Positions 1,081 to 59,245 of a DNA stretch of 64,000 nt are shown piece after piece. This stretch comes from an uncultured Holophagae bacterium. Its GTDB lineage: Bacteria > Acidobacteriota > Thermoanaerobaculia > Thermoanaerobaculales > Sulfomarinibacteraceae. A program made the position numbers and the translations under genes. The notes under the pieces were generated by a model. It was not told the origin of the DNA. It made no database searches and was given only the letters and a program-made list of their open reading frames with translations. Where the stretch lies: contig CAWDGW010000014.1 in assembly GCA_963801995.1 (NCBI GenBank), positions 359,523 to 423,522 on the forward strand. The letters run 5' to 3'. Numbering within the stretch: the stretch's first letter is position 1; each line of letters begins with the position of its first letter.

Positions 1081-1115
1081 GAATTCGGAATTCGGAATGC
1101 GGAAAACCGAACCGG
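1081..1115 (+). repeat. GAATTCG heptamer array x3 + GAAAACC + GAACCGG
   Basis: Starts 11 nt after the stop codon at 1070. The reverse complement recurs at 4462-4504. Confidence 0.9.
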
Positions 1116-1121
1116 GGAGTT

Positions 1122-1153
1122 CTCAAGCCCTCAAGCCCTCAAACCCCATAACC
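1122..1153 (+). repeat. octamer array CTCAAGCC x4
   Basis: Seen directly. Confidence 0.85.
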
Positions 1154-1176
1154 CTGACAGGTAGACGGCGACTATA

Positions 1177-1204
1177 GACTTTTGACTTTAGACTTTTGAC
1201 TTAG
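1177..1204 (+). repeat. GACTTTT heptamer array x4
   Basis: Overlaps the stop codon of the minus-strand gene at 1201. Confidence 0.9.
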
Positions 1205-1674
1205 CCTATGGGGGCGGTCGCGGGATCGGCGGCCAGTGCTTCCGCCTCGGATCTCTTCGGCCAGGCCAACAACATCGACGCGATGGAAAGCGCTCCCAAG
1301 CCAACACACCACACGAGATCCCCGCTGAGAAACGTGATCACCAGACCGATGATTGCGGTGCTCTCACGGAGCGCGAATCCCACGATGATCGAAACGCGGT
1401 ATGACGCCAATCGCTCCTCGGCCGTCGGTTTGGAGGCGGCCGCAGTCTTCAGTTTGCCTGCGACCACCGATGCCACGAGCAGCTGAGCCACCGCGATGGC
1501 GGCGAGTACCCACACCACCACGGGTGCAAGCTCCGGAACCGCAGTGATGGCGTTTTGGCCCACGACGAGATAGGCCACAACCACGTAGATCGGCACGGCC
1601 ATCAGGATCGCGAAGCAGATCACCGTCGTCGTCCGCGTGAACAAATCGATGGACTCACGGTCGGTTGCGGTCAT
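1201..1674 (-). CDS. hypothetical integral membrane protein
   Basis: 157-aa ORF with about four hydrophobic helices and no recognisable family. Its stop codon lies inside a GACTTTT array. Confidence 0.5.
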   Translation of the reverse strand: MTATDRESIDLFTRTTTVICFAILMAVPIYVVVAYLVVGQNAITAVPELAPVVVWVLAAIAVAQLLVASVVAGKLKTAAASKPTAEERLASYRVSIIVGFALRESTAIIGLVITFLSGDLVWCVGLGALSIASMLLAWPKRSEAEALAADPATAPIG

Positions 1675-1719
1675 CTCACCCCCCCCTTGCTGTCGGTGAA
1701 CTCAGCGTAGCACGTGGCT

Positions 1720-1754
1720 GGAATGTGGAATGTGGAATTTGGAATGTGAAAACC
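1720..1754 (+). repeat. GGAATGT heptamer array x4 + GAAAACC
   Basis: Lies in the divergent spacer 1675-1901. Confidence 0.9.
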
Positions 1755-1901
1755 TGTCTCGACGGTCGAGCCGTAGGGGGTGAGAGAGTTCAGACACTTC
1801 GAAAAGCGGGGTGGGGGGGAGGAGGGATGGCTTTTCGAAGGGGGAGGGTGGGTGGGGAATTGCCGATTTTCCGGGAACCTCCGCGGTGCTGACATCGTAT
1901 T

Positions 1902-4461: not shown

Positions 4462-4504
4462 CCGGTTCGGTTTTCCGAATTCCGAATTCCGAATTTCCAA
4501 TTCG
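4462..4504 (-). repeat. GAATTCG heptamer array with GAAAACC-GAACCGG end (reverse)
   Basis: CCGGTTCGGTTTTCCGAATTCCGAATTCCGAATTTCCAATTCG, between convergent genes. Confidence 0.9.
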
Positions 4505-8082: not shown

Positions 8083-11000
8083 ATGAGATCAACACCCCTG
8101 GTGTCGCTTGCGGTTTTTGCATTGGCGACGGTCGCCGTGGCAGAGGAGCCCGCGCCCATTCACCACGCATTGCAGGTGAGACTTGACCCCGCCGACCACA
8201 GGATCGAGGTGGTGGACGGCCTCAGGCTCACCGGAATGGATGCTGAGGATGATGGAGGCTATCGGTTCGTGCTGCACGCCGGACTCAACCCCGAGGTGGC
8301 GAGTCCACATTGGCGGCTGCACCGGCTCGACGAGGCATCGCCTGCAGCCTTCCTCGGCATCAATGCCACATCGGAGTCCGCCGGCGGGGAGCTGCCTCTC
8401 GAGGTGTGGCGGTTGGTTCCTGGGGAGAACGGTGGCGAGTCGGTGGAGATCCGTTACGGCGGGAAAATCCACCACGAGTTGACCACCAGTGGTGAGGAAT
8501 ACCAACGGAGCTTCTCCGAGACGCCGGGACTGATTGACGAGCGAGGCGTGTTCCTCGCCGGTGCCAGTTACTGGGTGCCGACCTTTGGCGACCAATTGAT
8601 GACCTTCGAACTCGAAGTCGGCGGGTTGGTGCCGCCGTGGGACGTGGTGAGCCAGGGCGACCGAATTCGTCATCACCTGGTGGATGGCGAGCGTGTCACC
8701 GTGTGGCGAGCGGATCATCCTACCGAGGAAATCTACCTGGTGGCCGGCCCGTGGCACGAGTACTCCGATCGCGCCGGCGAGGTCGAAATCCTGGCCTTCT
8801 TGCGTGACGACGAGCCTCCGTTGGCCGACAAATATCTCGAAGCGACCAGGCGATACCTGGCGCTCTACGAGGCGATGTTGCCCGCATATCCGTACGGCTC
8901 CTTTGCCCTGGTGGAGAACTTCTGGGAAACCGGCTACGGCATGCCGGGCTTCACCTTGCTCGGGCCGCGGATCATCCGCTTCCCGTGGATTCTGACCTCC
9001 TCCTACCCCCATGAACTGCTCCACAACTGGTGGGGTAACGGAGCGTACGTGGACTTCGACCGCGGCAACTGGTGCGAGGGCCTGACCGCGTACATGGCGG
9101 ACCATCTTTTCGCCGAACAGCGGGGCGAGGCGGCCACCTACCGTCGAGCCACCCTCAAGAAATACTCGGACTTCGTTTCCACCGGCAAGGACTTCCCGCT
9201 CTCCGAGTTCACCTCGCGGCGTTCGGCGGCCTCCGAGGCGGTGGGGTACGGCAAGAGCCTCATGCTGTACCACATGGTGCGTCGGGCGGTGGGCGACGAC
9301 GCATTCCTCCAGGCCATGTCGGCTTTCTATGAGGACAATAAATTCACCCGGGCATCCTTCGATGACATCGCAGCTGCGGTGGAGTTGGCCGCCGGCGGTG
9401 ATTGGCCGGAGTTTTTCGCTGCCTGGGTGGGGCGCTCCGGTGCCCCGTCCCTGGGCATCGTCGATGTGAAGGTGGGGGAGCCAGTCGTTCCCAACGGACC
9501 CTGGAAGCTCCGCCTTCACCTGCGCCAGCAGCAGGCCGAGGAGCCCTTCTCGATCAGTTTTCCGGTGGCGGTGACCATGGATGGTGTCGAGGAGGCTCTG
9601 GTGGTGGAATCCGGTTCCTGCCAGCGGGACTGCCTGGTAGAGATCCAGTGCCCGGCTCGGCCGGTGCGAGTCGATGTGGACCCCGAGTTCGACGTCATGC
9701 GCCGGCTGGATCCCCTCGAGGTCCCGCCGGCCCTTTCTACGGTCTTTGGCGCCCCATCACCGCTCTTCGTGATTCCTGCTGACGCCACGGAGGATGAACG
9801 CCGGGCGTGGACGGAGTTGGCCGCGGGCTGGGCGCTCCCCGAGATGCCCAGGGTCGTTCTCGACAGCGAGCTCGAGGAGATGCCCGAAGGCCCGGCCTGG
9901 ATTCTTGGCTGGAGCAACCTGTGGGCCGGAAAGACGGCGGACAGGGTGGCGGTTCAGGGGTTCGGGATGGACGCTGACGTTGTGCGCCTCCCGGACGAGG
10001 CGCTGCCCCGCGCTGGCCACTCCCTGGTGGTGGTGGCCCGCAGCGTTCAGAACCCGGCAGCTGCGGTGGGGTGGGTGGCAGCCGATCCCGTGGCCGCCAT
10101 TCCCGGCCTCGCCCGCAAGCTGCCCCATTACACCAGGTACTCCTACCTCGGGTTCCGTGGCGACGAACCGGAGAACGTGGCCAAGGGCATGTGGCAGCCG
10201 TTGTCCTCACCACTGGTTCGCCATCTCGGCGACGGGGACCCGCCGCCGCTGGTTCTGCCCGACCGATCGCCGCTGGCAGAGCTGCCCGCAGTCTTCGACG
10301 CAGCCGCAATGGCCAGCGCGGTTGCTTACCTTGCCGATCCGCGGCTTGAAGGCCGCGGCCCCGGGTCGGAGGGGCTGGCCGAGGCCACTCGCTGGGTCGA
10401 GCGGCAGTTCGGGGAGATCGGGCTGTCGCCCCGTGGGGATCATGGTTTTCGCCAGTCGTGGCTCTGGACGGGAGGAGATCCCGAGCGGGAGATCGAGCTG
10501 GTCAATCTGGTGGGAGTCCTTCCCGGCACCGATGGAGCTCTCGTGGACCGGCCGGTGGTGGTGTTGGCGCACCTCGATCACCTGGGCCTGGGCTGGCCGG
10601 ACGTTCGCGCCGGCAACCAGGGGCGCGTCCACCCAGGGGCCGACGACAACGCATCGGGAGTGGTCGCGCTGCTCGAGCTGGCGCGGGCCATGGCCAACGA
10701 GCCCGCGCGCCCGCGGCCGGTGGTGTTTGCCGCGGTGACGGCGGAGGAGGCCGGGCGGGTCGGTTCGAAACATCTGCTGGCCGGGCTCGCGGAGCGGTCG
10801 GCCCCCTTGGCCTGCGTCAACCTGGATTCGGTGGGCCGGCTGGGCGACGGCAAGCTCTTCGTTCTCAACGCCGACTCGGCGCGGGAGTGGCGGTTCATCT
10901 TCATGGGTGTGGGCTACACCACCGGCGCGCCGGTGGCGGTGGTGGCCGAGCCGCTGGACAGCTCGGACCAAATGAGCTGCATCGAGGTGGGAGTGCCGGC

Positions 11001-12106: not shown

Positions 12107-12143
12107 AGCCTTTCCCTCCCTCGCAAATGAGGCGGGAGGAGGA

Positions 12144-12185
12144 AATCTTCAATCTTCAATTTTCAATCTTCAATTTTCGAAAACC
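12144..12185 (+). repeat. AATCTTC heptamer array x5 + GAAAACC
   Basis: Lies between the convergent nfuA-like gene and cysE. Confidence 0.9.
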
Positions 12186-13322: not shown

Positions 13323-14283
13323 TTACCAAAGCGCCACCGGGTTGATGATCATCTGGACGGTACCCTTGATGCGGGCCTGACCGAGCACAAACATGAATTC
13401 ATGGACACCCTCTTTGGCGAGACGTCCGGTATTCATGGTTTCCAGAATATAAATTCCACCTTTCTTGAGAAACTCGATATGGCCGTAGAAGACCTTGTCC
13501 CCCTGAACCGGCGGCACCACTTCAACACCCCACGTGTCGGCGCCCACTGCCATCGGACTGAGGGAAGCCAAGTAGGCCGCCGCCTCATTTGTCAGGCCCG
13601 GTTCCCCCGCTGCCCAGGCCTGGGGATCTGAGCTCAGCATGGCGTCGGTCCAACCGGTGTGCAACAACACCACATCGCCCTGGCGGATCTTCACTCCTTG
13701 GACACTGGCAGCAGCTTTGATGTCTGCCGAGGTGATGGCCTGGCCCGACGCCATGGTGTCGACGCCAAAATACCGGGCCATATCAAGCAACACTCCGCGG
13801 CCAATCAATGGTGGCACCTTGTCCGTACCGAGCCTTTTCAAACCCGAGATATCGATAAAATCGACCGCCTTGTTGCAGTTGTAGTAGACGCCGCCCTCAC
13901 CCATATGGCCGAGGCCGTCCAGTTGCGGTCCGATGCCAAACCACAGTTGGGCCAATCGTCGTTATACGAGGCATCCAACCAAGATCCGGGATCAGGCTGC
14001 GGCCGTTATGTTGCCCTGGCTGCACGATCTGAAGGGAAAAGGATCGGGGCGGGTAGGCCGGCATTTTCGGATCAACCACGATGCCCAGCGGGTGAGACTG
14101 TCCCTTCTTCACCAGTTGCACCGCCATGAGTATCTGTTCAGGGGAGACATGGTTGGCGGAGCCGATTTCGTCGTCCGCTCCCCAGCGGGATGGTATGCAA
14201 TCATCGGCTATGCCGGTCTGGCATATGCCGATGAAAGCCAGGGCAAAGAAAAAGGGACGAAATATTTTCGAAATCCTGTTCAC
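13323..14283 (-). pseudogene. putative cyclase / kynurenine-formamidase-like gene split by frameshift(s)
   Basis: The N-terminal part with signal peptide lies in ORF 13897..14283. The C-terminal part (GPQLDGLGHMGEGG...) lies in ORF 13323..13955 in another frame. The break is near 13950-13990. Confidence 0.6.
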
Positions 14284-14379
14284 GCTTCACTCTCCTTTTT
14301 CGGCGTCGTTTTTGCTTTTCAGGCCCATAGCCAGTGATCGGGATATCCACAACCGTATCACGGTGCAAGAAGACCAGCG

Positions 14380-14433
14380 CTGGCACCTTCAGCAAGTCGG
14401 CAAAGCGGTGCCTGGCACCCTTAGGCACCCTTA
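14380..14433 (+). repeat. REP family 1 copy (GTCGGCAAAGCGGTGCCTGGCACC) with extra GGCACCCTTA half-sites
   Basis: Palindrome GGTGCC-T-GGCACC. Same 24-mer as at 16447 (inverted), 17473 and 18330. Confidence 0.85.
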
Positions 14434-14570
14434 CGTTGATCGACCCTTCGGCGGGAGGCCTGAAGCGCGTGAGCCGCACCTCGAGCGACTCGTCGATGGC
14501 TTCGAGCATCACGTCCGTGTCATCGGGAACGGTGCCGGGCTTTAGCCCGCACTATTCACCACCCATCTAC

Positions 14571-16184
14571 TTAAGGATATCCGCCGACAGTTGATGACCA
14601 CTGGGAGGTGCTGCCAGACTCGAAACCGTCCATGAATATCAGCGACGACGTCTCGTAAGGCCCCATGTCCACGACCCGCCCTTCACCGTCCGGGACGCCG
14701 GTATCGGGGATCATGGGATCATCCTTGCGACGGGGCGTGCCATCGAGGTCGAGCTCGATCATCTCATCGGTGATGTGATCCTCGTCGAGGTCGGCGAGGT
14801 CGAGGGGGATCGCGGTACTGTCGCCGGCGTCGATGGCGGGAGAATCGAGGTTGGGCCGGAAGTCGGTGCCCGGGTTGACGAAGGATGGATCGATGTCCAG
14901 GTTGTCGGTTCCGGTTCCGGTCCAACCCCCCCTCGAAAATGCTGTGGTTAAGGGTCAAGGATTGTATGTCCCCGGCGATCTGAGGATCAATCCATGCGCT
15001 GTTCCCCCAGAAGATGCAGTTCGTGAACGTGATCGCCCCTGTGCAAATAAGTCCACGCCGCCGCCGGGGCCCGTATGGGCAGTATTGCCTGACACGGTCA
15101 CGTTGACGAAGACCGGCGGCTCCGGGTTAGCCCCCTCCAGGCGGAGGCCTCCGCCGCTCCAGGCGGTGTTTCCTGCGAAAAGGCAGTTGACCAGGATCAG
15201 GCGTTAAAGGGCGGCTCCGACGTCAACCCTGAGTCCACCGCCGGGGTGATTCGGTGCCTGGTTGTCGATGAAGCTGCAGTTGTACGCACGGATGACTCCA
15301 CCAACACCGGCCCAGGCCCCGCCTCCTCCATACAGGGCAAGGTTGTCGATGAGGGTGACGTTTACAAGGGTCACGCCGCCGCCCCAGGCGTTCACGCCGC
15401 CCCCCCACGGGTTGAAAACATCGTCAGCGTACCCACGGGTGATGGTGACTCCGTTGACCATGGCGGTCGAGTTGGAGCCGCCGGCGACGACCACGTGCCA
15501 GGAGTTGTCGGTTGCGTCGGGCCCGCCGATTTCACCGCTGAGGATTGTGGGGTGTGCGTTCCAGTCGCGCAGTTGGCGGACGGTCTCGCCACCGGCGAAG
15601 CCGCCGTAGACACGCACGCCGCTCTTGGTGAGGAATGCGTCCGATTCGACGGCCCCGGGCACGTAGGTCCCTTCGGCCACCCAGACTTCGATGCCCGACA
15701 CGGCGAGGTCGATGCCGTCCTGGAGATCGGTGAATGCGCTGGCCCACGACGAGCCGTCATTGGTTCCGGTCGCGTCGGTGTCGACGTAAACGAAGCCCAT
15801 GTCGATGTCGTTGCCGGTTGTTGCGCCACCGCTGACGGTCACCGTGTCTCGGTTCCCGTCACCGTCGGCGTCGTACCAGACGAGCACATCCTCAGGGCGC
15901 GGGTCGCCGAATACACCGTCGCGGGCCATCAGTGCAGCAACGTAATAGTCCCCGTCCTGAACAGGGATCGAAAAAGCTCCGCCGGAAATGGGAACGAAGA
16001 CCGATGCGTCCGGCGGCCCGTCAGGATTAGTGTGGGCCCCGATCTCGATCTGGGTGCCGGCGCCCGGATCGCCCCAGAAGGTCACGGTGCCCTCGATGTT
16101 ACCGGCGGCGAACGCACCCAGGGGGACCAGAGCCAGGATCAGATTCGAGATAACAATCGAACGGGCATGACTCGGATGACTCAT
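14571..16184 (-). pseudogene. secreted parallel beta-helix repeat protein, disrupted
   Basis: ORF 15204..16184 ends at an in-frame TAA (15204-15206), but NC.F.GN-type repeats continue beyond it. There is a frameshift near 15050 and another in the C7 run 14926-14932. The DGFESG C-terminal tail lies in ORF 14571..14762. Confidence 0.6.
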
Positions 16185-16430
16185 ACGATCCTCCCTGTTC
16201 GAGCAGTCCCCGGAAGGACTATGCGCTGGCTCGATGAAGTTCCTCGAAATCGAGAAAGCCTCATCAAAACAGCATCTGAAATTGTTTGGCTACCCAATTA
16301 AATAGTTCTTCTCCGGGGGGATGTCAACCTGGCTGGTGGCAACGGCCGGAAAGTGAACCAGGGCAACGGTTGGTAATTGACCCACCCTGGGCGGTTTCAG
16401 TGTAAGGAAAGGGAAGATGCAGTGGTTATA

Positions 16431-16470
16431 AAGGTGCCATATAAAGGTGCCAGGCACCGCTTTGCCGACT
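16431..16470 (-). repeat. REP family 1 copy, inverted orientation, with extra AAAGGTGCCA half-site
   Basis: GGTGCCAGGCACCGCTTTGCCGAC is the reverse complement of the 18330 copy. Confidence 0.85.
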
Positions 16471-16492
16471 TGTTAGAATCGACTCGGGATAA

Positions 16493-18320
16493 TTGATGCC
16501 AAGAGCAGGGCGTAGCTTCGAGGAAGGAAGGACCTACCACGTGTACAACCGCGTGGCCGGGGGAAGGATGGCGTTCGAGGACGACGAATTGGCCGGAACA
16601 TTCGTCGATCTTTTCCGGCAAGCGGCCGACCGGGACGAGGTCGCCGTCCTGGGTTGGTGCCTGCTCGGGAATCACTACCACATGATCCTCCGACAGGGCC
16701 CTGTGCCATGTCTCGGACGATGAAGACAATTCAGCAGGGCGTCAATAGAAAGAGGAACATCCGGGAAGGCACGACGGGCCTCTCTGGCAGGGGAGGTTTA
16801 AGGCCAAGGAGGTGTCAGATGACGACTACCTCCGCCAGTTGGTGGCGTACGTCCATCTCAATCCAGTAAAGGCAAATCGTTGCAGGACGGTTGATGATTA
16901 CCGATTGAGTGGGCATGGCGACGTTGTCGGCAAAAGGCGAAACCCGATCGTCAGGGGGGATGATGTTCTTCTGTTGTTCGGGGACAGGAGACGGGAGGCG
17001 CTGCGGCATTACCGCAGAGCTCTGGCTGGCATAGGCGGAGAGGAGTGGGCAGGTGAGGGTCCCGGCAACCTGCCGTGGTGGCGTCTGGGTCGGCCGACCG
17101 AGGAGGAGAGGCTGAAACGCAGCGAGGGGGCGTACATCGACGAATTGGGACGGAGTACGGCGATGTGGCGGCCAAGGATCGAGGCGAGGGACTGGGTCAA
17201 TTTGGCCTGTTCACATTTGGGCGTTAACCCAGAAGAGCTGAAAGGACACGGGCGTGACCCGGAGATCGTGAAGTGCCGGGAACTCATCGGATTGGTGGGA
17301 ATCGAGCGGTATGGAGTGAAAGTCAACGAATTGGCCGAGGTCCTCGAGAAGTCGCGGGACGGCGTGAGCAAGTCGATGCACTGCGGCGCGGTTCGAGGGT
17401 ATCTGACCCCGGAATGTGCCGCGGCCGCACAAGCGCTGGACGACGCTGCGGGAAGAGCCCTAATAGTGATAGGTCGGCAAAGCGGTGCTTCGCACCTTTC
17501 CATGGGTTGGTGCCTGCTCGGGAATCACTACCACATGATCCTCCGACAGGGCCCTGTGCCACTGTCTCGGACGATGAAGACAATTCAGCAGGGCGTCACT
17601 AGAAAGAGGAACCTCCGGGAAGGCACCTACGGGCCTCTCTGGCAGGGGAGGTTTAAGGCCAAGGAGGTGTCAGATGACGACTACCTCCGCCAGTTGGTGG
17701 CGTACGTCCATCTCAATCCAGTAAAGGCAAATCGTTGCAGGACGGTTGATGATTACCGATTGAGTGGGCATCGCGACGTTGTCGGCAAAAGGCGAAACCC
17801 GATCGTCAGGGGGGATGATGTTCTTCTGTTGTTCGGGGACAGGAGACGGGAGGCGCTGCGGCATTACCGCAGAGCTCTGGCTGGCATAGGCGGAGAGGAG
17901 TGGGCAGGTGAGGGTCCCGGCAACCTGCCGTGGTGGCGTCTGGGTCGGCCGACCGAGGAGGAGAGGCTGAAACGCAGCGAGGGGGCGTACATCGACGAAT
18001 TGGGACGGAGTACGGCGATGTGGCGGCCAAGGATCGAGGCGAGGGACTGGGTCAATTTGGCCTGTTCACATTTGGGCGTTAACCCAGAAGAGCTGAAAGG
18101 ACACGGGCGTGACCCGGAGATCTTGAAGTGCCGGGAACTCATCGGATTGGTGGGAATCGAGCGGTATGGAGTGAAAGTCAACGAATTGGCCGAGGTCCTC
18201 GAGAAGTCGCGGGACGGCGTGAGCAAGTGGATGCGCCGCGGCGCGGTTCGGAGGGTATCTGACCCGGAATTTGCCGCGGCCGCACAAGCGCTGGACCACG
18301 CTGCGTGGGAAGAGCCCTAA
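16493..18320 (+). pseudogene. REP-associated tyrosine transposase (IS200-like HUH/Y1 domain + DnaA_C-like HTH tail), disrupted by indels and an internal tandem duplication
   Basis: N-terminus YHVYNRV and HUH motif GNHYHMIL in ORF 16493..16723. The catalytic-Tyr region YVHLNPVKA occurs twice in the fused ORF 16812..18320. Copy 1 of the body carries several 1-2 nt indels relative to copy 2. Confidence 0.75.
17473..17501 (+). repeat. REP family 1 copy, degenerate, at the duplication junction
   Basis: GTCGGCAAAGCGGTGCTTCGCACCTTTCC; the palindrome is weakened (TGCTTCGCA). Confidence 0.8.
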
Positions 18321-18329
18321 TTGTGATAA

Positions 18330-18358
18330 GTCGGCAAAGCGGTGCCTGGCACCTTTCC
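18330..18358 (+). repeat. REP family 1 copy
   Basis: GTCGGCAAAGCGGTGCCTGGCACCTTTCC, located 10 nt after the RAYT stop codon. Confidence 0.85.
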
Positions 18359-18400
18359 GATACCAACAATGCTGAGGGCGGCATCAACATGTTCATCACC

Positions 18401-18420
18401 CATGACGTGCCCGGCACGTT
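18401..18420 (+). repeat. REP family 2 copy (CATGACGTGCCNGGCACGT)
   Basis: Palindrome ACGTGCC-C-GGCACGT. Shares the GTGCCNGGCAC core with family 1. Confidence 0.8.
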
Positions 18421-18509
18421 GAGCCACTCGTGGGCAGCCCGGTTGAGAGCGTCGCGCCCGGCACCCATCGAACGATCGCAGTTGCCCTCGGCGAGACAGC
18501 AGCGTAGGC

Positions 18510-19592: not shown

Positions 19593-19604
19593 GCACGTTG
19601 GGTG

Positions 19605-19624
19605 AACGTGCCAGGCACGTCATG
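19605..19624 (-). repeat. REP family 2 copy, inverted
   Basis: AACGTGCCAGGCACGTCATG is the reverse complement of the 18401 motif. Confidence 0.8.
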
Positions 19625-19673
19625 TTGGACGATCTTAACCGCCGCCTGGCCACCCTCGGTTGGCGCAACATCA

Positions 19674-19694
19674 CATGACGTGCCTGGGACCTTT
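19674..19694 (+). repeat. REP family 2 copy, degenerate
   Basis: CATGACGTGCCTGGGACCTTT. Confidence 0.7.
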
Positions 19695-19788
19695 ATGGCT
19701 GAAATTGAGCAGGGTGCCACTCTAGAACGTGGCAGCCCTTCGTCGCCGTTTTCGCGACGATTCCCGGTGAGATATGCGGGTTAGCCCC

Positions 19789-20316: not shown

Positions 20317-20528
20317 GGTCCTGTTTCCTCCTGTTTGATCCTGTCAACTCGACAATATCATGGTGATCCAGGTCGAGACCGGGCTTATGTTGCCGCGACT
20401 CTCTGGATCGTTCCAACGCGCCCCTGGGGTCAGGTCACACCGGTTGCGATTCTCACGTCTATTTTTCACAATACGGTTCGAGCGTTACGACACGCTGATC
20501 CGATGGTAGCGTGCGCCATTAGACACCA

Positions 20529-38815: not shown

Positions 38816-38831
38816 GGCGTAAAGATCTGAA

Positions 38832-39080: not shown

Positions 39081-39096
39081 GCGTTATACTCCAACC

Positions 39097-39621: not shown

Positions 39622-39815
39622 GCGTGGGCGTGAACTGGATCGAACAATGTCTGGTACCCACCCCCGGTCATAGCCCCATGGCCCCAAAGCGCCACTCTCT
39701 CCCATATGTAAACGTCGGCAGAATTGCCATGAACATCAGCCAAGGCTTTCATGAACGTTGAACGTTTAACCTGAACGAGAGGACCTCAGACCTGCCTACG
39801 GGTAGAGCCGATTGA

Positions 39816-41134: not shown

Positions 41135-41169
41135 AAATTCGGAATTCGGAATTCGGAATTCGAAAATCG
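41135..41169 (+). repeat. GAATTCG heptamer array x4-5
   Basis: AAATTCG GAATTCG x3 AAAATCG. Confidence 0.9.
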
Positions 41170-41928: not shown

Positions 41929-41993
41929 GACCGAGCCTCCGAAAGAACAGTGGCGATCGACGACAACCCTCTCATTTCAACCTCGGTGAATCA

Positions 41994-42028
41994 ACTCTTC
42001 AATTTTCAATCTTCAATCTTCAATTCAA
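41994..42028 (+). repeat. AATCTTC heptamer array x5
   Basis: Lies upstream of trpE. Confidence 0.9.
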
Positions 42029-43625: not shown

Positions 43626-43640
43626 GGGCCGCGGCAAATG

Positions 43641-43776
43641 CGAAATTCGAAATTCGAAATTCGAAATTCCCCCACCCGCCCAGGCACTGACCGACGCGGT
43701 CGAGGTCTCGGACAAACGCTGGCAACTTTGGGTGTGCGGTGGGGGAATGTTGTCGAATTTCGAATTTCGAATTTCC
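43641..43776. repeat. inverted heptamer arms (CGAAATT x4 + CCCCC / GGGGG + CGAATTT x3) around a ~67-nt core
   Basis: The arms are reverse complements of each other, giving a potential stem of about 30 bp. Lies between trpE and trpG. Confidence 0.9.
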
Positions 43777-46251: not shown

Positions 46252-46286
46252 AATTTTCAATCTTCAATCTTCAATTTTCAATTGGG
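46252..46286 (+). repeat. AATCTTC/AATTTTC heptamer array x5
   Basis: Fills the 46-nt trpC-trpF spacer. Confidence 0.9.
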
Positions 46287-47008: not shown

Positions 47009-47072
47009 CGGGAACGGGAACGGGAACGGGAACGGGAACGGGAACGGGAACGGGAACGGGAACGGGCACGGA
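47009..47072 (+). repeat. hexamer array GGAACG x9 (+1 degenerate)
   Basis: Lies in the trpF-trpB spacer. A partial inverted copy CCCTTCCCGTTCCGG is at 46909-46930. Confidence 0.95.
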
Positions 47073-50081: not shown

Positions 50082-50118
50082 GGGTTTTGCGAATTCCGAA
50101 TTCCGAATTCCGAATTCC
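50082..50118 (-). repeat. GAATTCG heptamer array x4 with CAAAACC end (reverse)
   Basis: GGGTTTTG followed by CGAATTC x4. Starts 11 nt after the rsmA stop codon. Confidence 0.9.
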
Positions 50119-51009: not shown

Positions 51010-53441
51010 TGCGCGATCGGATCCTCCGTGAGACCGGTGCTGTGGCGCTGCTGCTGGGCTCAATCCTGGTGGCGGTGGCCCTGGTTTCCCACTCGCCGAT
51101 GGATCCCAGTCCATTCCACGCCTCGACGTTGAGGTCGAGCCCGATCAACTGGGCCGGATGGCTTGGGGCGACTCTGTCGGCGGCCCTGTTGAGTGTCATC
51201 GGTGTCACGGCCTTTCTGCTGCCTCCCATCGGAGCCGTGCTGGGTTGGCGAATTCTGAGGCAGCGGCCCCTGGAAAACTCGCCGGTGACCTTGATCGGTT
51301 GGCTGGTCATCATCCTCTCCCTGCCAGGGTTGGCGGCACTGCTGACCACGGACCTGCCCTACCGTGACGGGTTCATACCCTTCGGCGGGCTGACTGGGAT
51401 GGCCTCGGCGCAGCTCCTCGGCGGTTTCGCCGGTCCGGTGGGCCGACTGGTGATCTTGGCCTTCCTTCTCCTCTTCGGTGGTCTCATGGTGTCTGGCAGA
51501 TCGGCCGCGACGCTGGCGGACGCGATCATGAGCAAGTTCCAGGGTCGGCTCGACCGGAGCCATCGAGAGCGGATTCGGCGTCGGCGGGAAAAAGAGAAGC
51601 AGCAGAACAAGCGAAAGGTCCTGGAACGTCAGCTGCGCCGGTTGGACGCCGAGGACGCGTATCGCGGATCCATCACCGTCAAGAAAGTGGAGGGCAAAGG
51701 CCGGTTCAGAATCGTGCGCCGGATGGCTCCATTCCTCGGCGAGGACATGTCCGAAGAGGGGGACGATGGTGCGGAGCCGGCTGCCACCACGGCCCGACGC
51801 CGAACGTCCCGCTCCGGCCGAACGGCGGGTGGCGCAGCGGCGATGCGAAAGAAGAAGGTGGTTCAGGAGGAGTTCGATTTCGTCGACGATCTCGAGTCCT
51901 ACGATCTGCCCCGGGTTCAGTTCCTGGATCAACCCGAGGAGGAGGCTCCTCGGAACTCGGACGCGCTGATCGAAATGTCGAAGCTGATCACCGAAAAGTG
52001 CCACGAGTTCAAAGTTCGCGGCGAGGTGGTGAACATCCGAACCGGACCGGTGATTACGACCTACGAATTTCGGCTCGAGCCCGGGGTCAAGATCGCGGCC
52101 GTTCAGAATCTGTCCGAGGACCTGGCGCTCGCCCTGCGCACCGAGTCGGTGCGGATCGAGCGGGTACCAGGGCGTGCCACGGTGGGAATCGAGGTGCCCA
52201 ACCCCAATCCGGAGGTCATCCGGCTGAGAACCCTCGCCGAGTCGGCCGAGTTTCAGCACGCCCAGTCGCTGCTCACATTGAGCCTCGGGGTGGACAAGAG
52301 TGGCAAGCCATTTTTTGCCGACCTTGCTCGGATGCCCCACCTGCTGATCGGCGGGTTCACCGGATCGGGGAAATCGGTGGGCCTCAACGCCATGATCATG
52401 TCGATTTTGTACAAGGCACGACCCGAGCAGGTGAAGTTCATCCTGGTGGACCCGAAGATGGTGGAGCTCGGCGTCTATGCCCACATTCCCCATCTGCTAA
52501 CTCCCATTATCTCGGATCCGAAGAAGGCGGCCAATGCTCTCGGATGGGCGGTGACCGAGATGGATGAGCGCTACCGCCGGCTGGCGGCGCTCGGGGTGCG
52601 AAACCTCAACCAGTACAACCAGCTGGTGAGCGATCCCGGGCAGCTCAAAAAGGTCAAGGCACAGCTCGCAGTGGATGACGAGGGGCGGGATTTGGACTTC
52701 GAGCCGCTGCCCTTCATCGTCATCATCATCGACGAGCTGGCCGATCTCATGCTGGCCTCGTCCCGCGCGGTGGAGGAGTCCATCACCCGTCTTTCCCAGA
52801 AGGCGAGGGCGGTGGGACTCCACCTGGTGTGTGCGACCCAACGACCGTCAGTGGACATCCTCACCGGGATCATCAAGGCGAACTTCCCGTGCCGATTGTC
52901 CTACAAGGTCCGCTCCAAGTTCGACTCCCGGACGATCCTCGATGCCATCGGAGCCGAGCACCTCCTCGGTCGCGGCGATATGCTCTTCCTGCCGCCGGGC
53001 ACCTCGGCCCTGCTCAGGCTCCATGGCCCGCACGTCACCGAGAAGGAAATCGCCACGGTGGTTCGGTATATCAAACGATTCGGCAAACCGGACTACCAGA
53101 GAGAGGTCCTGACCCACGCCCCGCTCGGCGGTAACGAACGGGGCGGGCGACGCACGACAGTCGATGATGAAGATCAACTCACCGACCCCATGTACGATCG
53201 GGCGGCGCGGCTGGTGGTCGAGACGCGCAAGGCTTCGGCTTCGTACATCCAGCGCCGATTGCACCTCGGGTACACCCGGTCGGCGCGACTCCTCGATATG
53301 ATGGAGAGAGAGGGCCTGGTGGGCCCGCTCGCAGGATCGAAGGGAAGGGACGTCCTCGTTCCGAAAAACTACTTCGAGGAGGTGGACGAGAGCCACCTGC
53401 TCAACTACGGCGGCGTTGACGAGAGCGAGGTGTCGAGATGA
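51009..53441 (+). CDS. ftsK: DNA translocase FtsK
   Basis: ATG shares one base with the uppP TGA. N-terminal TM helices, Walker A GGFTGSGKS, and C-terminal gamma wHTH YIQRRLHLGYTRSARLLDMME. Confidence 0.9.
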   Translation: MRDRILRETGAVALLLGSILVAVALVSHSPMDPSPFHASTLRSSPINWAGWLGATLSAALLSVIGVTAFLLPPIGAVLGWRILRQRPLENSPVTLIGWLVIILSLPGLAALLTTDLPYRDGFIPFGGLTGMASAQLLGGFAGPVGRLVILAFLLLFGGLMVSGRSAATLADAIMSKFQGRLDRSHRERIRRRREKEKQQNKRKVLERQLRRLDAEDAYRGSITVKKVEGKGRFRIVRRMAPFLGEDMSEEGDDGAEPAATTARRRTSRSGRTAGGAAAMRKKKVVQEEFDFVDDLESYDLPRVQFLDQPEEEAPRNSDALIEMSKLITEKCHEFKVRGEVVNIRTGPVITTYEFRLEPGVKIAAVQNLSEDLALALRTESVRIERVPGRATVGIEVPNPNPEVIRLRTLAESAEFQHAQSLLTLSLGVDKSGKPFFADLARMPHLLIGGFTGSGKSVGLNAMIMSILYKARPEQVKFILVDPKMVELGVYAHIPHLLTPIISDPKKAANALGWAVTEMDERYRRLAALGVRNLNQYNQLVSDPGQLKKVKAQLAVDDEGRDLDFEPLPFIVIIIDELADLMLASSRAVEESITRLSQKARAVGLHLVCATQRPSVDILTGIIKANFPCRLSYKVRSKFDSRTILDAIGAEHLLGRGDMLFLPPGTSALLRLHGPHVTEKEIATVVRYIKRFGKPDYQREVLTHAPLGGNERGGRRTTVDDEDQLTDPMYDRAARLVVETRKASASYIQRRLHLGYTRSARLLDMMEREGLVGPLAGSKGRDVLVPKNYFEEVDESHLLNYGGVDESEVSR

Positions 53442-53752
53442 CATCCGGACTTTTCGAGTTCAGCCCTTCGATGACGGTTCAGCTCCTCGGAGCCGCAGGA
53501 ATCGTGATCCTGCTCGTGCTGCTGGTGATCAGCTTCATGTCTCGAGCTCGGGTCTTTTGCCAGTACCTCAAGCACATGACCGGGATCGAGCTCAAGCCGG
53601 TGACGGTGCGCAGGGTTTACCGTCAGAAAGGTCGGGCTGGTGTCCGCGACTTTCTGATTTCCCTGCTCATTCAGGAGGATCTGGCCGATCCGCGCCGGGT
53701 CGTCACACCGGACTCGGTTCCCGACACCTCCATGTACAACGGCAACAAGTAG
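53438..53752 (+). CDS. small hypothetical membrane protein
   Basis: ATGA overlap with the ftsK stop codon. One hydrophobic helix. Confidence 0.45.
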   Translation: MTSGLFEFSPSMTVQLLGAAGIVILLVLLVISFMSRARVFCQYLKHMTGIELKPVTVRRVYRQKGRAGVRDFLISLLIQEDLADPRRVVTPDSVPDTSMYNGNK

Positions 53753-53792: not shown

Positions 53793-53827
53793 GAATTCGA
53801 AATTCGAAATTCGAAATTCGAAAACCC
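53793..53827 (+). repeat. GAATTCG/AAATTCG heptamer array x4 ending AAAACCC
   Basis: Seen directly. Confidence 0.9.
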
Positions 53828-53843
53828 TTCCTTAAACTCACTG

Positions 53844-53869
53844 CCTCATAGCCTCATAGCCCCACAGCC
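53844..53869 (+). repeat. octamer array CCTCATAG x2-3
   Basis: Seen directly. Confidence 0.8.
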
Positions 53870-53880
53870 TGGTCTAGAAT

Positions 53881-56566: not shown

Positions 56567-56605
56567 ACCTTTAAACCTTTAACTTTTAAACCTTTAAACC
56601 ATTTT
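56567..56605 (+). repeat. 7/8-mer array ACCTTTAA x4-5
   Basis: Lies between the convergent genes. Confidence 0.85.
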
Positions 56606-56609
56606 CCGA

Positions 56610-57944
56610 TCACAACGGAATGGTACGTTGCCGCGCGCGCTCGGCAGGCACCAACCACTCATCAGGCTCCCCATCGCCCAGTCGGGCGATGGCGTGGGAC
56701 AGAGTGTCACGCAGGTACCTGCCCCAGATCTTGATGGGGATTCCATCCACCCTTGCGGTGGGAGAGATGGCGTGGCACAGCATGTACTCGATGATCCAGG
56801 AGGCGTTCTGTGCGATCCGACCGGAGTAACCGGCGCGATCTCGCTGTTCGAGGATCCGGACCTCGTGGATGCCGAGGCCAAACTCGGATTCCACGAGGTC
56901 GTCGATGGTGGTCAGGATGAGCTCGAGGCTGAAAGTCCGGCTGCCGGTGGTGACGTACTCGTAGAACTCGTTCTCGAGATCGAAGACCGAGACCCCGCGG
57001 CCGGCGGCGAAAGACCAGTCGATGTCGCGCAAGCCGGTCACGATCTCGTCCACCGGGGGGAGCTCGATCTCAACCTTGTAGTGGGTGCCCACGTACAGAC
57101 CTTCGTGGACCCTGCGGTGAAATGCCCAGGTTTGTTCCCTTTCGTCGAGGGCGATTTCGAGCTTTTCAATCTCGGCTGGCGTCGCGATCAGTTTGACCCC
57201 GATCACGTCGTCCACCTGCTGACGTTCAGGGTCGAGGGTGATCTCCATGGATCGAATTCGATCCGCCACCAAACGCTCCGCCTCGGTGAAGTCGTCGTCC
57301 ATCTGAGCCGGTGAGGAGATCATTCGATCCAGGGGAATACCGGCGTTTCGGGCACGCTCGGCGGCCAGGATTCGGGCAGCGTCGTCGATCTCGCCGGCCA
57401 GTTGTCGGGCCACGTGCCGAGAGACCTTCTCGGCGATTCGTCGGATTCGCTTTCGACGCACCATGCCCGCCAGGGTTCCGTCTTGTCGGGTGACGAGGCT
57501 CATGTGGACCGGGGTGCGGGGGAAGAACTCCTCTGGCTGTCCTTGGTAGCGCCCGAGAAGCTGGCGGGCTCGGGTCGAGGGTTCGGTCACCGCCGCCACG
57601 ATGGCGTCTCGAACCGCATCCTTGTCGGAAACCCGCTTCAGAATCAGGGAACCCGGCTGGATGGTCCGCGAAAGGTCGCCCACCAGGGCTCGCACCGACG
57701 GCGCGGTGATGGCCCGTTCAAAGGCGAATATCTCAGTCAAGGTGCGCCCATCGGTGGGCTCGACGCGGTCCGCCAACCATCGACAGGCGATGTCGAAGAG
57801 GCGGTCGCGGTGGGTCAAGCCGGTGAGGTACATGGGTCTTTTGTAACGGTGACATGTCGGCGGTGACGATTCAAGCGCCAGCGGTTTATTGACCGCAATC
57901 GACTCTCGCTCAACCGATCGTTGACGGTTTTTCGCATTTCGCAT
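56610..57944 (-). CDS. hypothetical protein with divergent RelA/SpoT-like nucleotidyltransferase features
   Basis: Basic RRKRIRRIAEK segment, DDVIGVKLIA, EGLYVGTHYKVEI and SLELILTT line up loosely with RSH synthetase motifs. Alternative start at ATG 57833. Confidence 0.35.
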   Translation of the reverse strand: MRNAKNRQRSVERESIAVNKPLALESSPPTCHRYKRPMYLTGLTHRDRLFDIACRWLADRVEPTDGRTLTEIFAFERAITAPSVRALVGDLSRTIQPGSLILKRVSDKDAVRDAIVAAVTEPSTRARQLLGRYQGQPEEFFPRTPVHMSLVTRQDGTLAGMVRRKRIRRIAEKVSRHVARQLAGEIDDAARILAAERARNAGIPLDRMISSPAQMDDDFTEAERLVADRIRSMEITLDPERQQVDDVIGVKLIATPAEIEKLEIALDEREQTWAFHRRVHEGLYVGTHYKVEIELPPVDEIVTGLRDIDWSFAAGRGVSVFDLENEFYEYVTTGSRTFSLELILTTIDDLVESEFGLGIHEVRILEQRDRAGYSGRIAQNASWIIEYMLCHAISPTARVDGIPIKIWGRYLRDTLSHAIARLGDGEPDEWLVPAERARQRTIPL

Positions 57945-58078
57945 TTCTTGGAAGCTCGAAGTCGAGGCGACCCGACCCAGTCACGAACTGTGCCAACGCC
58001 TGAAAATGGGTCTCAGCGCCCGCTTTCTTGATTTTGTGAAGGAATTCACATAAGTTCACATGAGCGCCTGTCCGGGTT

Positions 58079-58843
58079 ATGCTTGAACGCCGGCTCCAAC
58101 ACCTTCTCGACGTCAGGAGCACGCGATTGTTCGAAAAGCGAGTCACTATCTTTGTCGGTCATTTTGGCAGTGGCAAGACCGAGATTGCCCTCAACGGGGC
58201 TCTCGAGCTGGCCAAGGCCGGGGACCGGGTGACCCTTGCCGACCTGGACGTTGTAAAGCCCTATTTTCGGTCCCGTGCGGCGCGTGAGATTCTGGAAGCG
58301 GCAGGCATCCGCCTGCTGGCGCCCACCGGAGAGAACACCCACTCCGATTTGCCGATCATCGTCCCCCAGATCCGGTCTGCCCTCCAGGACCGTTCATGCC
58401 GGCTGGTGATGGACGTGGGCGGCGACGACAGCGGCGCAAAGGCCCTCGGATCTCTGTCGGACGTGGTTCCGAGAACCCAGACCGAGAACCTGGTGGTGCT
58501 GAACTTCAGACGGCCGTCGACGCCGGACACCGCAGCGGCAGTGACCATGGTGCGCCGAATCGAAGCGGCGGCGTGCCTCGGTGTGACCGGGTTGGTTTCC
58601 AATACCCACTTGATGGGGGAGACCACGCCCGGCATCGTCCTCGAGGGCCACCGGATGGCCATGGAGGTGGGAGAGGAGATCGGGATTCCGGTCGTGGCGG
58701 TGGCCGCCTCCCGGGACGTGGCGGACGATCTACGGGGCCAGCATCTGGGCTGCCCGGTCTTCGTGCTCGACCGAGTGGTCCTTCCGCCCTTTGAACAACC
58801 ACTCCAAACGCGGGTCTCGGGCCCGCTTTTTGTTGTCAACTGA
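58079..58843 (+). CDS. P-loop NTPase (MinD/ParA/CooC-like)
   Basis: Walker A GHFGSGKTE and Walker B-like LVMDVGGDD. Lies immediately upstream of the oxidoreductase genes. Confidence 0.6.
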   Translation: MLERRLQHLLDVRSTRLFEKRVTIFVGHFGSGKTEIALNGALELAKAGDRVTLADLDVVKPYFRSRAAREILEAAGIRLLAPTGENTHSDLPIIVPQIRSALQDRSCRLVMDVGGDDSGAKALGSLSDVVPRTQTENLVVLNFRRPSTPDTAAAVTMVRRIEAAACLGVTGLVSNTHLMGETTPGIVLEGHRMAMEVGEEIGIPVVAVAASRDVADDLRGQHLGCPVFVLDRVVLPPFEQPLQTRVSGPLFVVN

Positions 58844-58854
58844 GGGGAGGTCCA

Positions 58855-59088
58855 ATGCCCCGAATCGTCATTACTCCTGACCTCTGCAAGGGATGCGAGC
58901 TCTGCGTCAACGCCTGCCCGCAGCAGATCCTGGGCATGGGTACACGGATCAACAACAAGGGGTATTTCTACGCCGAGGTTGCGGAGCAGATGCGGTGCAT
59001 CGGTTGCCGGCTCTGCTGCATCACCTGTCCCGACGTGGCCATCGAGATGAAGGTCAACGGGACGATGTATCACTACTTCTCGTACTGA
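58855..59088 (+). CDS. 2-oxoacid:ferredoxin oxidoreductase delta subunit (2x[4Fe-4S] ferredoxin)
   Basis: CKGCELCVNACP and CIGCRLCCITCP motifs. Confidence 0.85.
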   Translation: MPRIVITPDLCKGCELCVNACPQQILGMGTRINNKGYFYAEVAEQMRCIGCRLCCITCPDVAIEMKVNGTMYHYFSY

Positions 59089-59135
59089 TGGGAGCAACCG
59101 TGCGTGGCGCGACCATTGACGCAGTCCATTACGAC

Positions 59136-59245
59136 GGGATTCGGGATTCGGGATTCGGGATTCGGGAATCGATAGCCCCCGACCGCGGGTGCAATTGGAG
59201 GCCGGAACCTCGAGCCCCGAACCCCGAAGCCCGAACCCCGAGACC
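59136..59245. repeat. inverted heptamer arms GGGATTC x5 (59136-59171) and CGAACCC x5 (59211-59245) around a ~39-nt core
   Basis: The arms are near reverse complements, with one mismatch per unit. Lies between the delta and alpha subunit genes. Confidence 0.85.

Follow-up and report, generated by a model that had tools for sequence, protein, structure and literature searches.

What are the short tandem repeats that stand between the genes in a 64-kb stretch of GC-rich bacterial DNA, and what put them there? The stretch (64,000 nt of contig CAWDGW010000014.1, called the window below) comes from an uncultured Acidobacteriota bacterium of soil or sediment (Thermoanaerobaculia; some records labelled Holophagae). 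An earlier note made from its letters alone had described more than 35 tandem arrays, usually with a period of exactly 7 nt, and had compared them with the short tandemly repeated repetitive (STRR) sequences of cyanobacteria. We found that the arrays are real, that they belong to the known class of heptamer simple sequence repeats (SSRs), and that neighbouring arrays pair into modules of regular build. The explanation we prefer, to which we give about an even chance, is a fast-evolving family of modules of that heptamer class, similar to repetitive extragenic palindromic (REP) sequences and bacterial interspersed mosaic elements (BIMEs) or to miniature inverted-repeat transposable elements (MITEs), whose main effect would be to form RNA hairpins that do not terminate transcription.

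The tandem-array observation itself is confirmed. Tandem Repeats Finder returned 83 rows for the window, and after collapsing overlaps the intergenic arrays came to about 40: 32 with period 7, 5-6 with period 8, two with period 9 and a single one with period 6. When at least three exact copies are required, period 7 retains 16 arrays, periods 5 and 6 retain one apiece, and periods 8-15 have none. Every one of the 16 exact period-7 arrays lies within the 14% of the window called intergenic (the gene calls are our own, based on codon usage and not curated, and place 59 genes on 86% of the window), and 200 dinucleotide-preserving shuffles of the intergenic DNA yielded no exact period-7 array. Bases in a 7-nt register make up 929 of 9,059 intergenic positions (10.3%) versus 56 of 54,941 coding positions (0.1%), and those 56 are accounted for by stop-codon overlaps and by one start, at 46239, that was probably called too far upstream. 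The units have a GC content of 39%, compared with 63% for the window. The earlier statements that the arrays number more than 35, mostly have a period of 7, are richer in AT than their background and are confined to non-coding DNA therefore stand. Their reported placement was also borne out: the arrays at 25967, 30024, 32905-32984, 33885-33917, 38762 and 46252 start 0-3 nt past a stop codon or overlap it, and the spacers 1675-1901, 25047-25271 and 28002-28358 are divergent. An artefact of assembly or polishing was considered and dropped, because an independent Logan assembly (L085; L-numbers are labels of the compared loci, strains and contigs) matches window positions 38730-39110 base for base, arrays included, and because similar arrays recur in the assemblies of relatives from many projects and sequencing technologies.

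The unit sequences fall into several families, as had been noted, but fewer of these are unrelated than the original list implied, several entries being rotations or reverse complements of one another. GAATTCG, CGGAATT, TTCCGAA, AATTCGG and CGAATTC are a single unit read in different rotations or on different strands, and CTGCCAA and CAGTTGG are, in the same way, one further unit. The fixed length of the arrays, the G/C-rich boxes beside them, the pairing into hairpins and an array-free region at 13.9-25.3 kb, all described below, were absent from that account.

For comparison we collected 80 loci around trpE, of which 48 (774 kb) form an ingroup with Thermoanaerobaculia-like TrpE (70-89% identity in all but one locus) and 32 (467 kb) an outgroup. 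The best TrpE matches (76-89% identity) are metagenome-assembled genomes (MAGs) labelled Acidobacteria, Thermoanaerobaculales, Candidatus Sulfomarinibacteraceae or Holophagae. A cyanobacterial host (Gloeobacter, which 62% GC together with STRR-like repeats had suggested) was rejected because the TrpE homologues and the syntenic loci are Acidobacteriota. Period-7 arrays number 221 in the ingroup and 5 in the outgroup. Ingroup arrays at other periods are also raised (54 at period 6, 43 at 8 and 26 at 9). Some relatives, mostly above 68% GC, lack heptamers and have instead a small number of octamer arrays (3 x 8 nt), frequently arranged in inverted pairs. These octamer relatives (L015, L018, L026, L028 and L048) carry about three units (24 nt) per array, with pairs such as CACCAAGA/TCTTGGTG and CACAGAGG/TCTCTGTG, and octamers replace heptamers in all of them with the exception of L026. 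The preferred period may thus be lineage-specific.

Array length is narrowly distributed. Among 248 ingroup heptamer arrays, 112 measure 31-33 nt (4.4-4.7 units); a secondary maximum is at 25-26 nt, and longer arrays are few. The simplest account of such arrays is a neutral by-product of slippage, in which the polymerase favours steps of 7 nt and arrays arise from AT-rich seeds and are purged from coding DNA; Rehm et al. 2015 (PMC4692102) attribute this polymerase-footprint hypothesis to Mrazek et al. 2007. The 74 canonical units found among the ingroup arrays, and the presence of arrays in every type of spacer, agree with it. The length peak at 31-33 nt does not, since simple slippage is expected to give a geometric decay. 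Slippage also does not account for the recurrence of a few units that dominate many genomes, each of the commonest being found in 14-16 of them (AAATCCG, 42 arrays in 14 genomes; AAAACTC, 29 in 14; AATTCCG, 27 in 16).

The sequences beside the arrays are similarly regular. On the A-rich strand, a G-rich box (GGGTGGGTGG or GGGAGGG type) stands upstream of the arrays; the upstream 14 nt contain at least eight G in 56 arrays and are C-rich in 7. A neighbouring array lies within 150 nt for 125 of 219 arrays. The spacers of paired arrays consist of a C-rich box, a loop and a G-rich box, with the C-rich box first in 32 cases and the G-rich box first in none (p ~5e-10), and this polarity is identical on both strands because the element is a dyad. 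Pairs that begin with the T-rich array have a spacer of 37-45 nt in 23 of 25 cases, with a mode at 41-43 nt. Array order is T-rich first and A-rich last in 25 pairs, the reverse in 10, and A-rich in both arms in 7; counted over adjacent oriented pairs, 35 of 43 are inverted in A/T-richness. The whole module measures about 110 nt and can be folded as a stem of at least 40 bp. Both the boxes and the tight spacer with its C-first order are further points that slippage leaves unaccounted for.

The spacer between trpE and trpG lets the same site be followed across relatives. In 13 of them the junction is compact (3-15 nt, several with overlapping ATGA stop-start codons), which looks like an empty site, and in 27 genomes, the window included, the spacer measures 118-251 nt. 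Most of the long spacers fold as one long hairpin with the arrays as its arms. The window copy (43636-43775, plus strand) is built of (AAATTCG)4.9, the C-box CCCCCACCCGC, a loop, the G-box GCGGTGGGGG and (TCGAATT)3.3, and the spacer has a minimum free energy (MFE) of -83.9 kcal/mol. Units at this site vary by genome (CGGATTT/AAATCCG, GAATTCG, AAATTCG, GAGTTTT/AAAACTN, GATTGCA/TGCAATC and AGGAATT/AATTCCT), and within each genome one arm still complements the other: duplexes of cognate arms come to -45.7 kcal/mol and those of non-cognate arms to -29.1 kcal/mol, a cognate mean that 0 of 10,000 permutations attain. Close relatives can differ in being filled or empty, L002 having a junction of 174 nt and L008 one of 7 nt in loci that are 89% identical.

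Downstream of trpG, many relatives carry a solitary G-box with an array that stops some 10 nt short of the following start codon and is conserved in position but variable in unit. Such arrays favour a second explanation, a protein-binding platform with about 7 nt per subunit, the candidate occupants being cold-shock-domain proteins or ribosomal protein S1 on single-stranded RNA, or else a DNA-binding or nucleoid protein peculiar to the lineage; with five sites side by side, the platform would adjust translation, the stability of RNA or the local organisation of DNA. Binding to heptanucleotides is a property of bacterial cold-shock proteins. The array size fixed at about five cores and the few units that recur across genomes fit a platform as well. 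For TAACTGA repeats upstream of start codons, MacGregor 2015 (PMC4679880) has proposed S1, Csp or CsrA, and a Nostoc preprint (10.1101/2022.06.06.494920) reports regulatory effects when heptamer repeats are deleted. We nevertheless regard this explanation as quite unlikely: 74 dissimilar canonical units argue against a single sequence-specific binder, arrays stand in either orientation both upstream and downstream of genes, solitary arrays have no significant strand bias, and no candidate protein was identified. That strand bias (28 versus 16) had been considered as a sign of function at the RNA level and was set aside for the same lack of significance.

Placement relative to genes is skewed. 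The median distance of an array from the upstream stop codon is 8.5 nt, and arrays are densest in convergent spacers (3.2 per kb), followed by co-directional (2.5) and divergent ones (0.8). This distribution would fit intrinsic, possibly bidirectional terminators, with the T-rich array serving as the U-tract past a GC hairpin. Of the solitary arrays in convergent spacers, moreover, 11 versus 4 are T-rich in the sense direction of the gene nearest to them, and the window has single look-alikes at 12114-12178, where a C-first GC stem-loop (12114-12142) downstream of a NifU-domain gene is followed by (AATCTTC)5.0 (12144-12178), and in the divergent spacer where the GC hairpin 28202-28230 is directly followed by (TTCCGAA)4.4 (28235-28265). 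However, a terminator consensus scan remained at chance level (14 versus 13.6 expected; 16 versus 11.9), in the paired modules the stem follows the T-rich arm and precedes the A-rich one (25 versus 10), the opposite of a terminator, and many modules are internal to operons (for example at trpE-trpG, trpC-trpF and trpF-trpB), where termination would do harm. With the scan at chance level and the polarity wrong, a terminator role was dropped as very unlikely.

Modules turn over far faster than the genes that adjoin them, although some spacers host modules over long evolutionary distances. In the relative L001, about 80% identical in nucleotide sequence and syntenic over 29-54 kb of the window, position is kept and the unit has drifted for the (AAGATYS)4 array at 36351-36378 (related array at 4974-5005 of L001), for (TCAATCT)4.7 at 41991-42024 upstream of trpE (9915-9943) and for the inverted pair 33835/33885. 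This pair, (AGTCCAA)2.6 ... (GACTTTW)4.7 at 33835-33917, forms a hairpin conserved at the orthologous site 2472-2573. Both position and unit are kept for (AATTTTC)4.6 at 46252-46283, between trpC and trpF (identical unit at L001 14199-14233). Other arrays are present in the window only: (CGAATTC)4.1 at 50090-50118, located 18 nt past the stop codon of an rRNA adenine dimethylase gene, the composite at 37870/37941, the hexamer array at 47009 and the array at 32905. Drift of units at orthologous sites and the many gains and losses between the window and L001 are as slippage predicts. The hexamer array, (CGGGAA)10.5 at 47009-47071 between trpF and trpB, is nearly perfect and much longer than the heptamer arrays, and the orthologous spacer of L001 measures 27 nt.

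Strains about 99% identical to the window in the flanking genes show the individual steps. One strain, L086, has an extra TTCCGAA unit at 37941, and in L086 as well as L087 the array at 38828 is short of one 16-nt unit and the 27-nt heptamer array at 38762 has two substitutions. The slippage polymorphism predicted by the earlier note is thereby found, and these single-unit changes speak for slippage within arrays. They would also be required if the arrays were contingency loci in which changes of unit number switch adjoining genes on and off, as heptamer repeats do in the phase variation of hmw1A in Haemophilus. We consider that explanation highly improbable: the adjoining genes are housekeeping genes (the trp operon, mutL, ftsK, NAD synthase and a tRNA synthetase), most arrays lie 3' of genes with divergent promoter spacers depleted (0.8 versus 2.5-3.2 per kb), and copy number keeps to a narrow range near 4.4-4.7 units.

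Other changes exceed single units. In the trpE-trpG spacer of L081 the left array is exact, two units of the right array share an identical A-to-C change, and the loop has strongly diverged with the C and G boxes conserved. L085 has an (AACTGCS)5 array in place of the composite module at window positions 37862-37943, and in L082 and L083 the whole spacer 59085-59245 is replaced by other modules that match arrays elsewhere in the window at 97-100%. The module replaced there is one of three clear hairpin modules in the window (43636-43775, 59135-59241 and 33835-33917, the other arrays being solitary) and consists of (CGGGATT)5.3, a 33-nt spacer and (GAACCCC)5.3 (59135-59241, plus strand), located between a ferredoxin gene and a pyruvate:ferredoxin oxidoreductase gene. 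A concerted substitution from GGGATTC to GGAATTC at 59135 relative to L082 was considered and dropped; the change is a module replacement, because the L082 array has the GGAAAAC flank typical of the TTCCGAA family and matches window arrays at 97-100%. The window (59085-59245) and L082 (458-678) have here an identical 77-residue ferredoxin, flanks that are 97-99% identical, and wholly different spacers. Three kinds of change are seen in the modules: single units are added or lost, the units of one array are homogenised, and entire modules are inserted or replaced. Swaps of whole modules between strains that are 99% identical in the flanking genes count against slippage as the sole process.

Dispersed copies are also present within the window. 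A GC-rich structured repeat of about 216 nt occurs at 26013-26228 (plus strand; terminal (AACTGCT)3.4 array at 26202-26225), as an inverted, 92% complementary copy at 30023-30238 (minus strand) that opens with (CAGTTGG)3.7 at 30024-30049, abutting the stop codon of the NAD synthase gene, and as a short, internally deleted copy at 32589-32705 (plus strand) bracketed by CTGCCAA/TTGGCAG units. Each copy ends in heptamer units of the CTGCCAA/CAGTTGG type. The repeat is absent at the orthologous sites of L001 and has no Rfam match at the gathering threshold; it may be a MITE or a small RNA candidate. An array-spacer-array composite, with (AATCGAA)6, a 29-nt spacer and (TTCCGAA)3.4 at 37870-37970 (plus strand), recurs inverted at 32708-32790 (minus strand, 87%) with a TTCCGAA-type array, the shared spacer and an AATCGAA-type remnant. 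A 16-nt near-repeat, GGCCATAMCYCCAGCC, brackets part of 37845-37935.

One region of the window stands apart. Positions 13,956-25,271 hold 36% of the intergenic bases (3.3 kb), yet the 27 heptamer arrays of 2.8 or more copies all lie elsewhere (P ~6e-6), a gap that slippage acting on all intergenic DNA does not explain. We observed no short tandem array of any kind there. GC is lower (0.59-0.63), and the region encodes a RAYT-like gene (REP-associated tyrosine transposase), a DUF4143/AAA_14 ATPase, a DUF6429 protein and a CAAX protease; 1.25 kb of it (13956-15203) has no confident gene call. Given the lower GC, the RAYT-like transposase and the DUF4143/AAA_14 ATPase, 13956-25271 is probably recently acquired DNA. 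Within it, 16400-18400 contains a tandem duplication of about 855 bp with stretches of 100% identity, either real or an effect of assembly, which covers a Y1/HUH transposase gene of the RAYT/IS200 type (GNHYHMILRQG, YVHLNPVKA; weak DnaA_C-like helix-turn-helix) whose first copy appears frameshifted. REP-like palindromes (AAGTCGGCAAAGCGGTGCCTGGCACCTTT) at 14394, 16443 (inverted), 17471 and 18328 are unrelated to the heptamer arrays. The possibility that the arrays are REP elements mobilised by this RAYT-like gene was rejected, the palindromes (GGTGCCTGGCACC) being different and restricted to the array-free region.

The arrays extend to phages. Ten IMG/VR contigs contain (AAATCCG)4. One (L093, 1-13185) encodes a lambda-type portal and a cement protein and has 8 heptamer arrays in 13 kb, and another (L098, 1-6626) encodes the large terminase subunit and a P22-like portal and has 7 arrays in 6.6 kb. 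All 15 arrays of these two contigs measure 3.4-5.7 units, most of them 4.3-4.9, and are sited between structural genes, and some of their units are those of the bacterial loci (AAATCCG, AATTCCG). A further contig, L095, has 5 arrays at a GC of only 45.5%. The presence of arrays in phage genomes implies that the process that makes or selects them acts on phage DNA too, and counts against mere tolerance of junk. It fits either a property of host replication or repair or a portable functional signal; slippage as a property of host replication would likewise act on any resident DNA. With its points on both sides now given, we consider slippage unlikely as the full explanation.

The preferred explanation, a REP/BIME- or MITE-like module family forming non-terminating RNA hairpins, takes as its ground the anatomy, the taxonomic distribution, the dynamics and the complementarity of the arms. 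The modules would be semi-selfish intergenic elements, for which the filled and empty sites, the dispersed copies and the replacement of whole modules are the grounds. Slippage and homogenisation would act inside each array, and selection would filter the form of the module against termination of transcription: with the pyrimidine-rich arm first, no U-tract would follow the stem, which means that operon-internal modules would not terminate in either direction. What would result are stable transcript hairpins between cistrons or at mRNA 3' ends, directly past stop codons, that may act in 3'-end protection, RNA processing or translation spacing. In 47 paired-array modules of co-directional spacers, the sense fold is the more stable in 29 and the antisense fold in 17 (Wilcoxon p = 0.018), and G-U pairs make up 9.5% of sense folds versus 6.3% of antisense folds; this asymmetry weakly supports selection on transcript structure.

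Several observations weigh against this explanation. The asymmetry is modest, and the elements counted are partly orthologous and not independent. About 40% of the arrays are solitary, with no significant strand bias (28 versus 16, p = 0.10), and hairpin formation cannot explain them; several pairs, the 7 with A-rich arrays in both arms, are not complementary. The complementarity of arms could be maintained mechanically, by template switching at quasi-palindromes and without selection. For the modules, we recognised no target-site duplications, associated transposase or parent element, and the loops of the hairpin modules within the window are mutually unrelated, so that true mobility is only a possibility. 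At the ferredoxin spacer, the sequences already part in the gene's final four codons and differ in the stop codon; homologous recombination that brought in a divergent allele would explain this better than transposition. The role at the RNA level and the way in which modules spread are things that we infer, and the explanation does not account for the period of 7 nt, the size of ~33 nt or the strictness of the C-first polarity.

There is a bolder reading, which we consider rather unlikely, in which the true unit is a size-measured, polarity-locked module (~33-nt array, C-box, loop, G-box, ~33-nt array) written by a dedicated process common to Thermoanaerobaculia and their phages and used as an operon-internal RNA signal. 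Such a process might be templated synthesis, template switching at the GC hairpin, or an unrecognised mobilising enzyme, and the signal might serve in processing, space or couple translation, or guard against read-in from the other strand. If true, this module would give a first mechanistic handle on the period-7 preference of prokaryotic intergenic repeats. Strict rules on array length, spacer length and GC polarity exceed simple slippage, and trpE-trpG, with 27 filled and 13 empty cases, supplies a natural series for a single spacer. The hypervariable spacers are potential strain markers and also a hazard for metagenome assembly and the calling of start codons.

The remaining arrays of the window are listed here in order. 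The first 5 kb hold (CGGAATT)3.7 (1079-1104), which lies 8 nt past the stop codon of the gene 60-1070, the octamer array (CTCAAGCC)3.1 (1122-1146), (GACTTTT)3.7 (1177-1202), which abuts the stop codon of the gene 1201-1674 (minus strand), (TGGAATG)4.3 in a divergent spacer (1719-1748), and (TTCCGAA)4.4 with a GGTTTTCC flank in a convergent spacer (4473-4503). Beyond the array-free region, (GAATTCG)3.3 (25967-25989) lies 2 nt past a stop codon, and (AGGCAGT)4.9 (30494-30527) is degenerate. The longest array, (CTGCCAA/CTGCTAA)11.4 (32905-32984), overlaps the stop codon of the gene 32971-33783 (minus strand). Two arrays follow at 36404-36450 ((CTCAGAT)6.7, degenerate) and 36464-36489 ((GCCGCAT)3.7). 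The (AGTCAAA)3.6 array (38762-38786) lies 1 nt past the stop codon of an HMA-domain gene and is followed by the 8/16-nt array TGAAGCAG/TGGAGCGG (38828-38872), by (AGCCCCTA)3.8 and then (CCCGAAT)3.7 upstream of an Smr-domain gene (39022-39080), by the octamer array (CATAGCCC)3.2 (39669-39694) and by the short array (TGAACGT)2.7 (39752-39770). A gap of 3 nt separates (AATTCGG)3.9 (41136-41162) from the point where a class II aminoacyl-tRNA synthetase gene (minus strand) starts. Further downstream are (AATTCGA)4.3 (53794-53823), upstream of mutL, and the octamer array (GCCTCATA)3.5 (53843-53870); the octamer array (ACCTTTAA)4.4 (56567-56600), which fills a convergent spacer; and the short array (TTTCGCA)2.6 (57930-57947).

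A C-rich nonamer array of 3-4 copies is common to two divergent promoter spacers, as (TCCACACCC)3.8 at 25134-25167 and (CCTCCACAC)3.2 at 28284-28312, located 104 nt and 46 nt upstream of a Zn-peptidase gene and the NAD synthase gene, respectively, and could be a shared regulatory site. At 26966-27099, a 27-nt (54-nt) tandem repeat of 5 copies occupies the 5' end of the long open reading frame (ORF) 26231-27154 (minus strand); because its period is a multiple of 3, it probably codes for a 9-residue protein repeat and lies outside the intergenic array system.

Besides the complete trp operon (trpE, G, D, C, F, B and A; 42.1-49.1 kb), the window encodes the housekeeping proteins NAD synthase, MutL, FtsK and a class II aminoacyl-tRNA synthetase, and also pyruvate:ferredoxin oxidoreductase subunits, peptidases and transporters. 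No tRNA genes or Rfam matches were detected in the 64 kb. Exact-protein look-ups of TrpE, TrpG, the products of 53438-53752 and 33910-34305 and the NifU-domain protein matched no record. Two ORFs, 36512-37852 (446 residues) and 56610-57833 (407 residues), score well and have no Pfam domain; a single genome scan with the protein of 36512-37852 as query returned no close relative.

How do these arrays relate to repeats already described? They are head-to-tail 7-nt units in at least three copies, intergenic, with an excess of period 7, as are heptamer SSRs in general. Mori et al. (10.1101/309039) found tandem heptamers to be the most abundant intergenic periodic repeat in prokaryotes, with "no clear clue" to their function, and heptamer repeats are over-represented in many bacteria according to Mrazek et al. 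2007 as cited in PMC4692102. In that paper, Rehm et al. 2015 report about 186 intergenic GGGAATC arrays in Xanthomonas, mostly of 4 units, with some inverted pairs, conserved positions and variable length, as well as GGGGA(C/T)T arrays in Nostoc, and found no function for them. The statement of the earlier note that such arrays are not a described feature of GC-rich bacteria is therefore wrong, and its interpretation is partly supported, the STRR analogy and the slippage prediction having been right. Regulatory roles have been proposed in PMC4679880 and in the Nostoc preprint cited above. Among the papers searched, none links Thermoanaerobaculia with tandem repeats or Acidobacteria with heptanucleotide repeats.

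The likeness to the Xanthomonas and Nostoc arrays includes non-coding tandem heptamers, a GC-rich host (Xanthomonas), a size of about 4 units, inverted pairs able to form stem-loops, few arrays between divergent genes, and retention between orthologous genes with variable length and sequence; size, inverted pairs and divergent depletion were all found here. The GGGATTC/CCCGAAT arrays at 59135 and 39049 resemble the Xanthomonas type. In contrast to Xanthomonas, the host belongs to another phylum and no G-rich unit dominates among the 74 canonical units, which are mostly AT-rich (39% GC). The G-quadruplex-type unit (GGGATTC/GAATCCC) forms only 2 of the 32 window arrays; since most units lack a G3 tract, the G-quadruplex rationale does not apply. 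The X. campestris genome is about 5 Mb, so that the 186 arrays counted there correspond to about 1 per 27 kb, compared with about 1 per 2 kb in the window (32 heptamer arrays in 64 kb). For Xanthomonas, the parts of PMC4692102 consulted do not mention flanking G/C boxes, a 37-45-nt spacer or a strict C-first polarity such as those found here.

The comparison with cyanobacterial STRR sequences is apt in that both are 7-nt tandem units of several families, dispersed intergenically (and only there in the window) and without known function; STRR sequences are often transcribed with adjoining genes. They differ in that the host here is a GC-rich, non-cyanobacterial Acidobacteriota, the dominant units are AAATCCG, AAAACTC and AATTCCG, and the arrays form size-constrained hairpin modules. 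The classical STRR unit sequences differ from these. The TAACTGA repeats of Beggiatoaceae, cyanobacteria and Bacteroidetes, for which a post-transcriptional role has been proposed, are likewise intergenic heptamer direct repeats of 2-6 copies near start codons, but have a single unit, with related heptamers rarely repeated, and stand mostly just upstream of start codons (PMC4679880), whereas the arrays here lie mostly just past stop codons, have many units and pair into hairpins. The contiguous 7-nt units, with no spacers between them, also set the arrays apart from clustered regularly interspaced short palindromic repeats (CRISPR), in which direct repeats (24-48 nt) alternate with unique spacers about as long. 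Phase-variable loci differ in the ways already given (housekeeping neighbours, mostly 3' arrays and narrow copy number), as do intrinsic terminators (chance-level scan; T-rich arm before the stem and A-rich after).

REP sequences and BIMEs of enterobacteria and pseudomonads share with the modules that they are short, abundant, strain-variable intergenic hairpins in operons and at 3' ends, and they stabilise upstream mRNA. REPs, however, are single imperfect palindromes of 20-40 nt mobilised by RAYTs, and the elements here are tandem arrays; the RAYT-like gene of the window (16.4-18.4 kb) is flanked by its own, different palindrome. MITEs and the small dispersed repeats of cyanobacteria are similar in being small and non-coding, with inverted ends, filled and empty sites (L002 versus L008) and dispersed composite copies. 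They differ from the elements here, whose ends are tandem arrays with a unit that changes between copies, most of whose hairpin modules have unique loops, and for which no target-site duplication or parent transposon was identified.

The spread across the lineage, the fixed size and the modular build seem to be unreported, and for the G/C boxes, the 37-45-nt spacer, the C-first polarity, the covariation of arms and the presence in phages there seems to be no earlier description in the literature compared. The lineage offers a dense and comparatively tractable case of a widespread pattern without known function or origin. By this comparison, the arrays of the window are a known class of repeat in a new phylum, with unusual density and unit diversity, and not a new kind of system.

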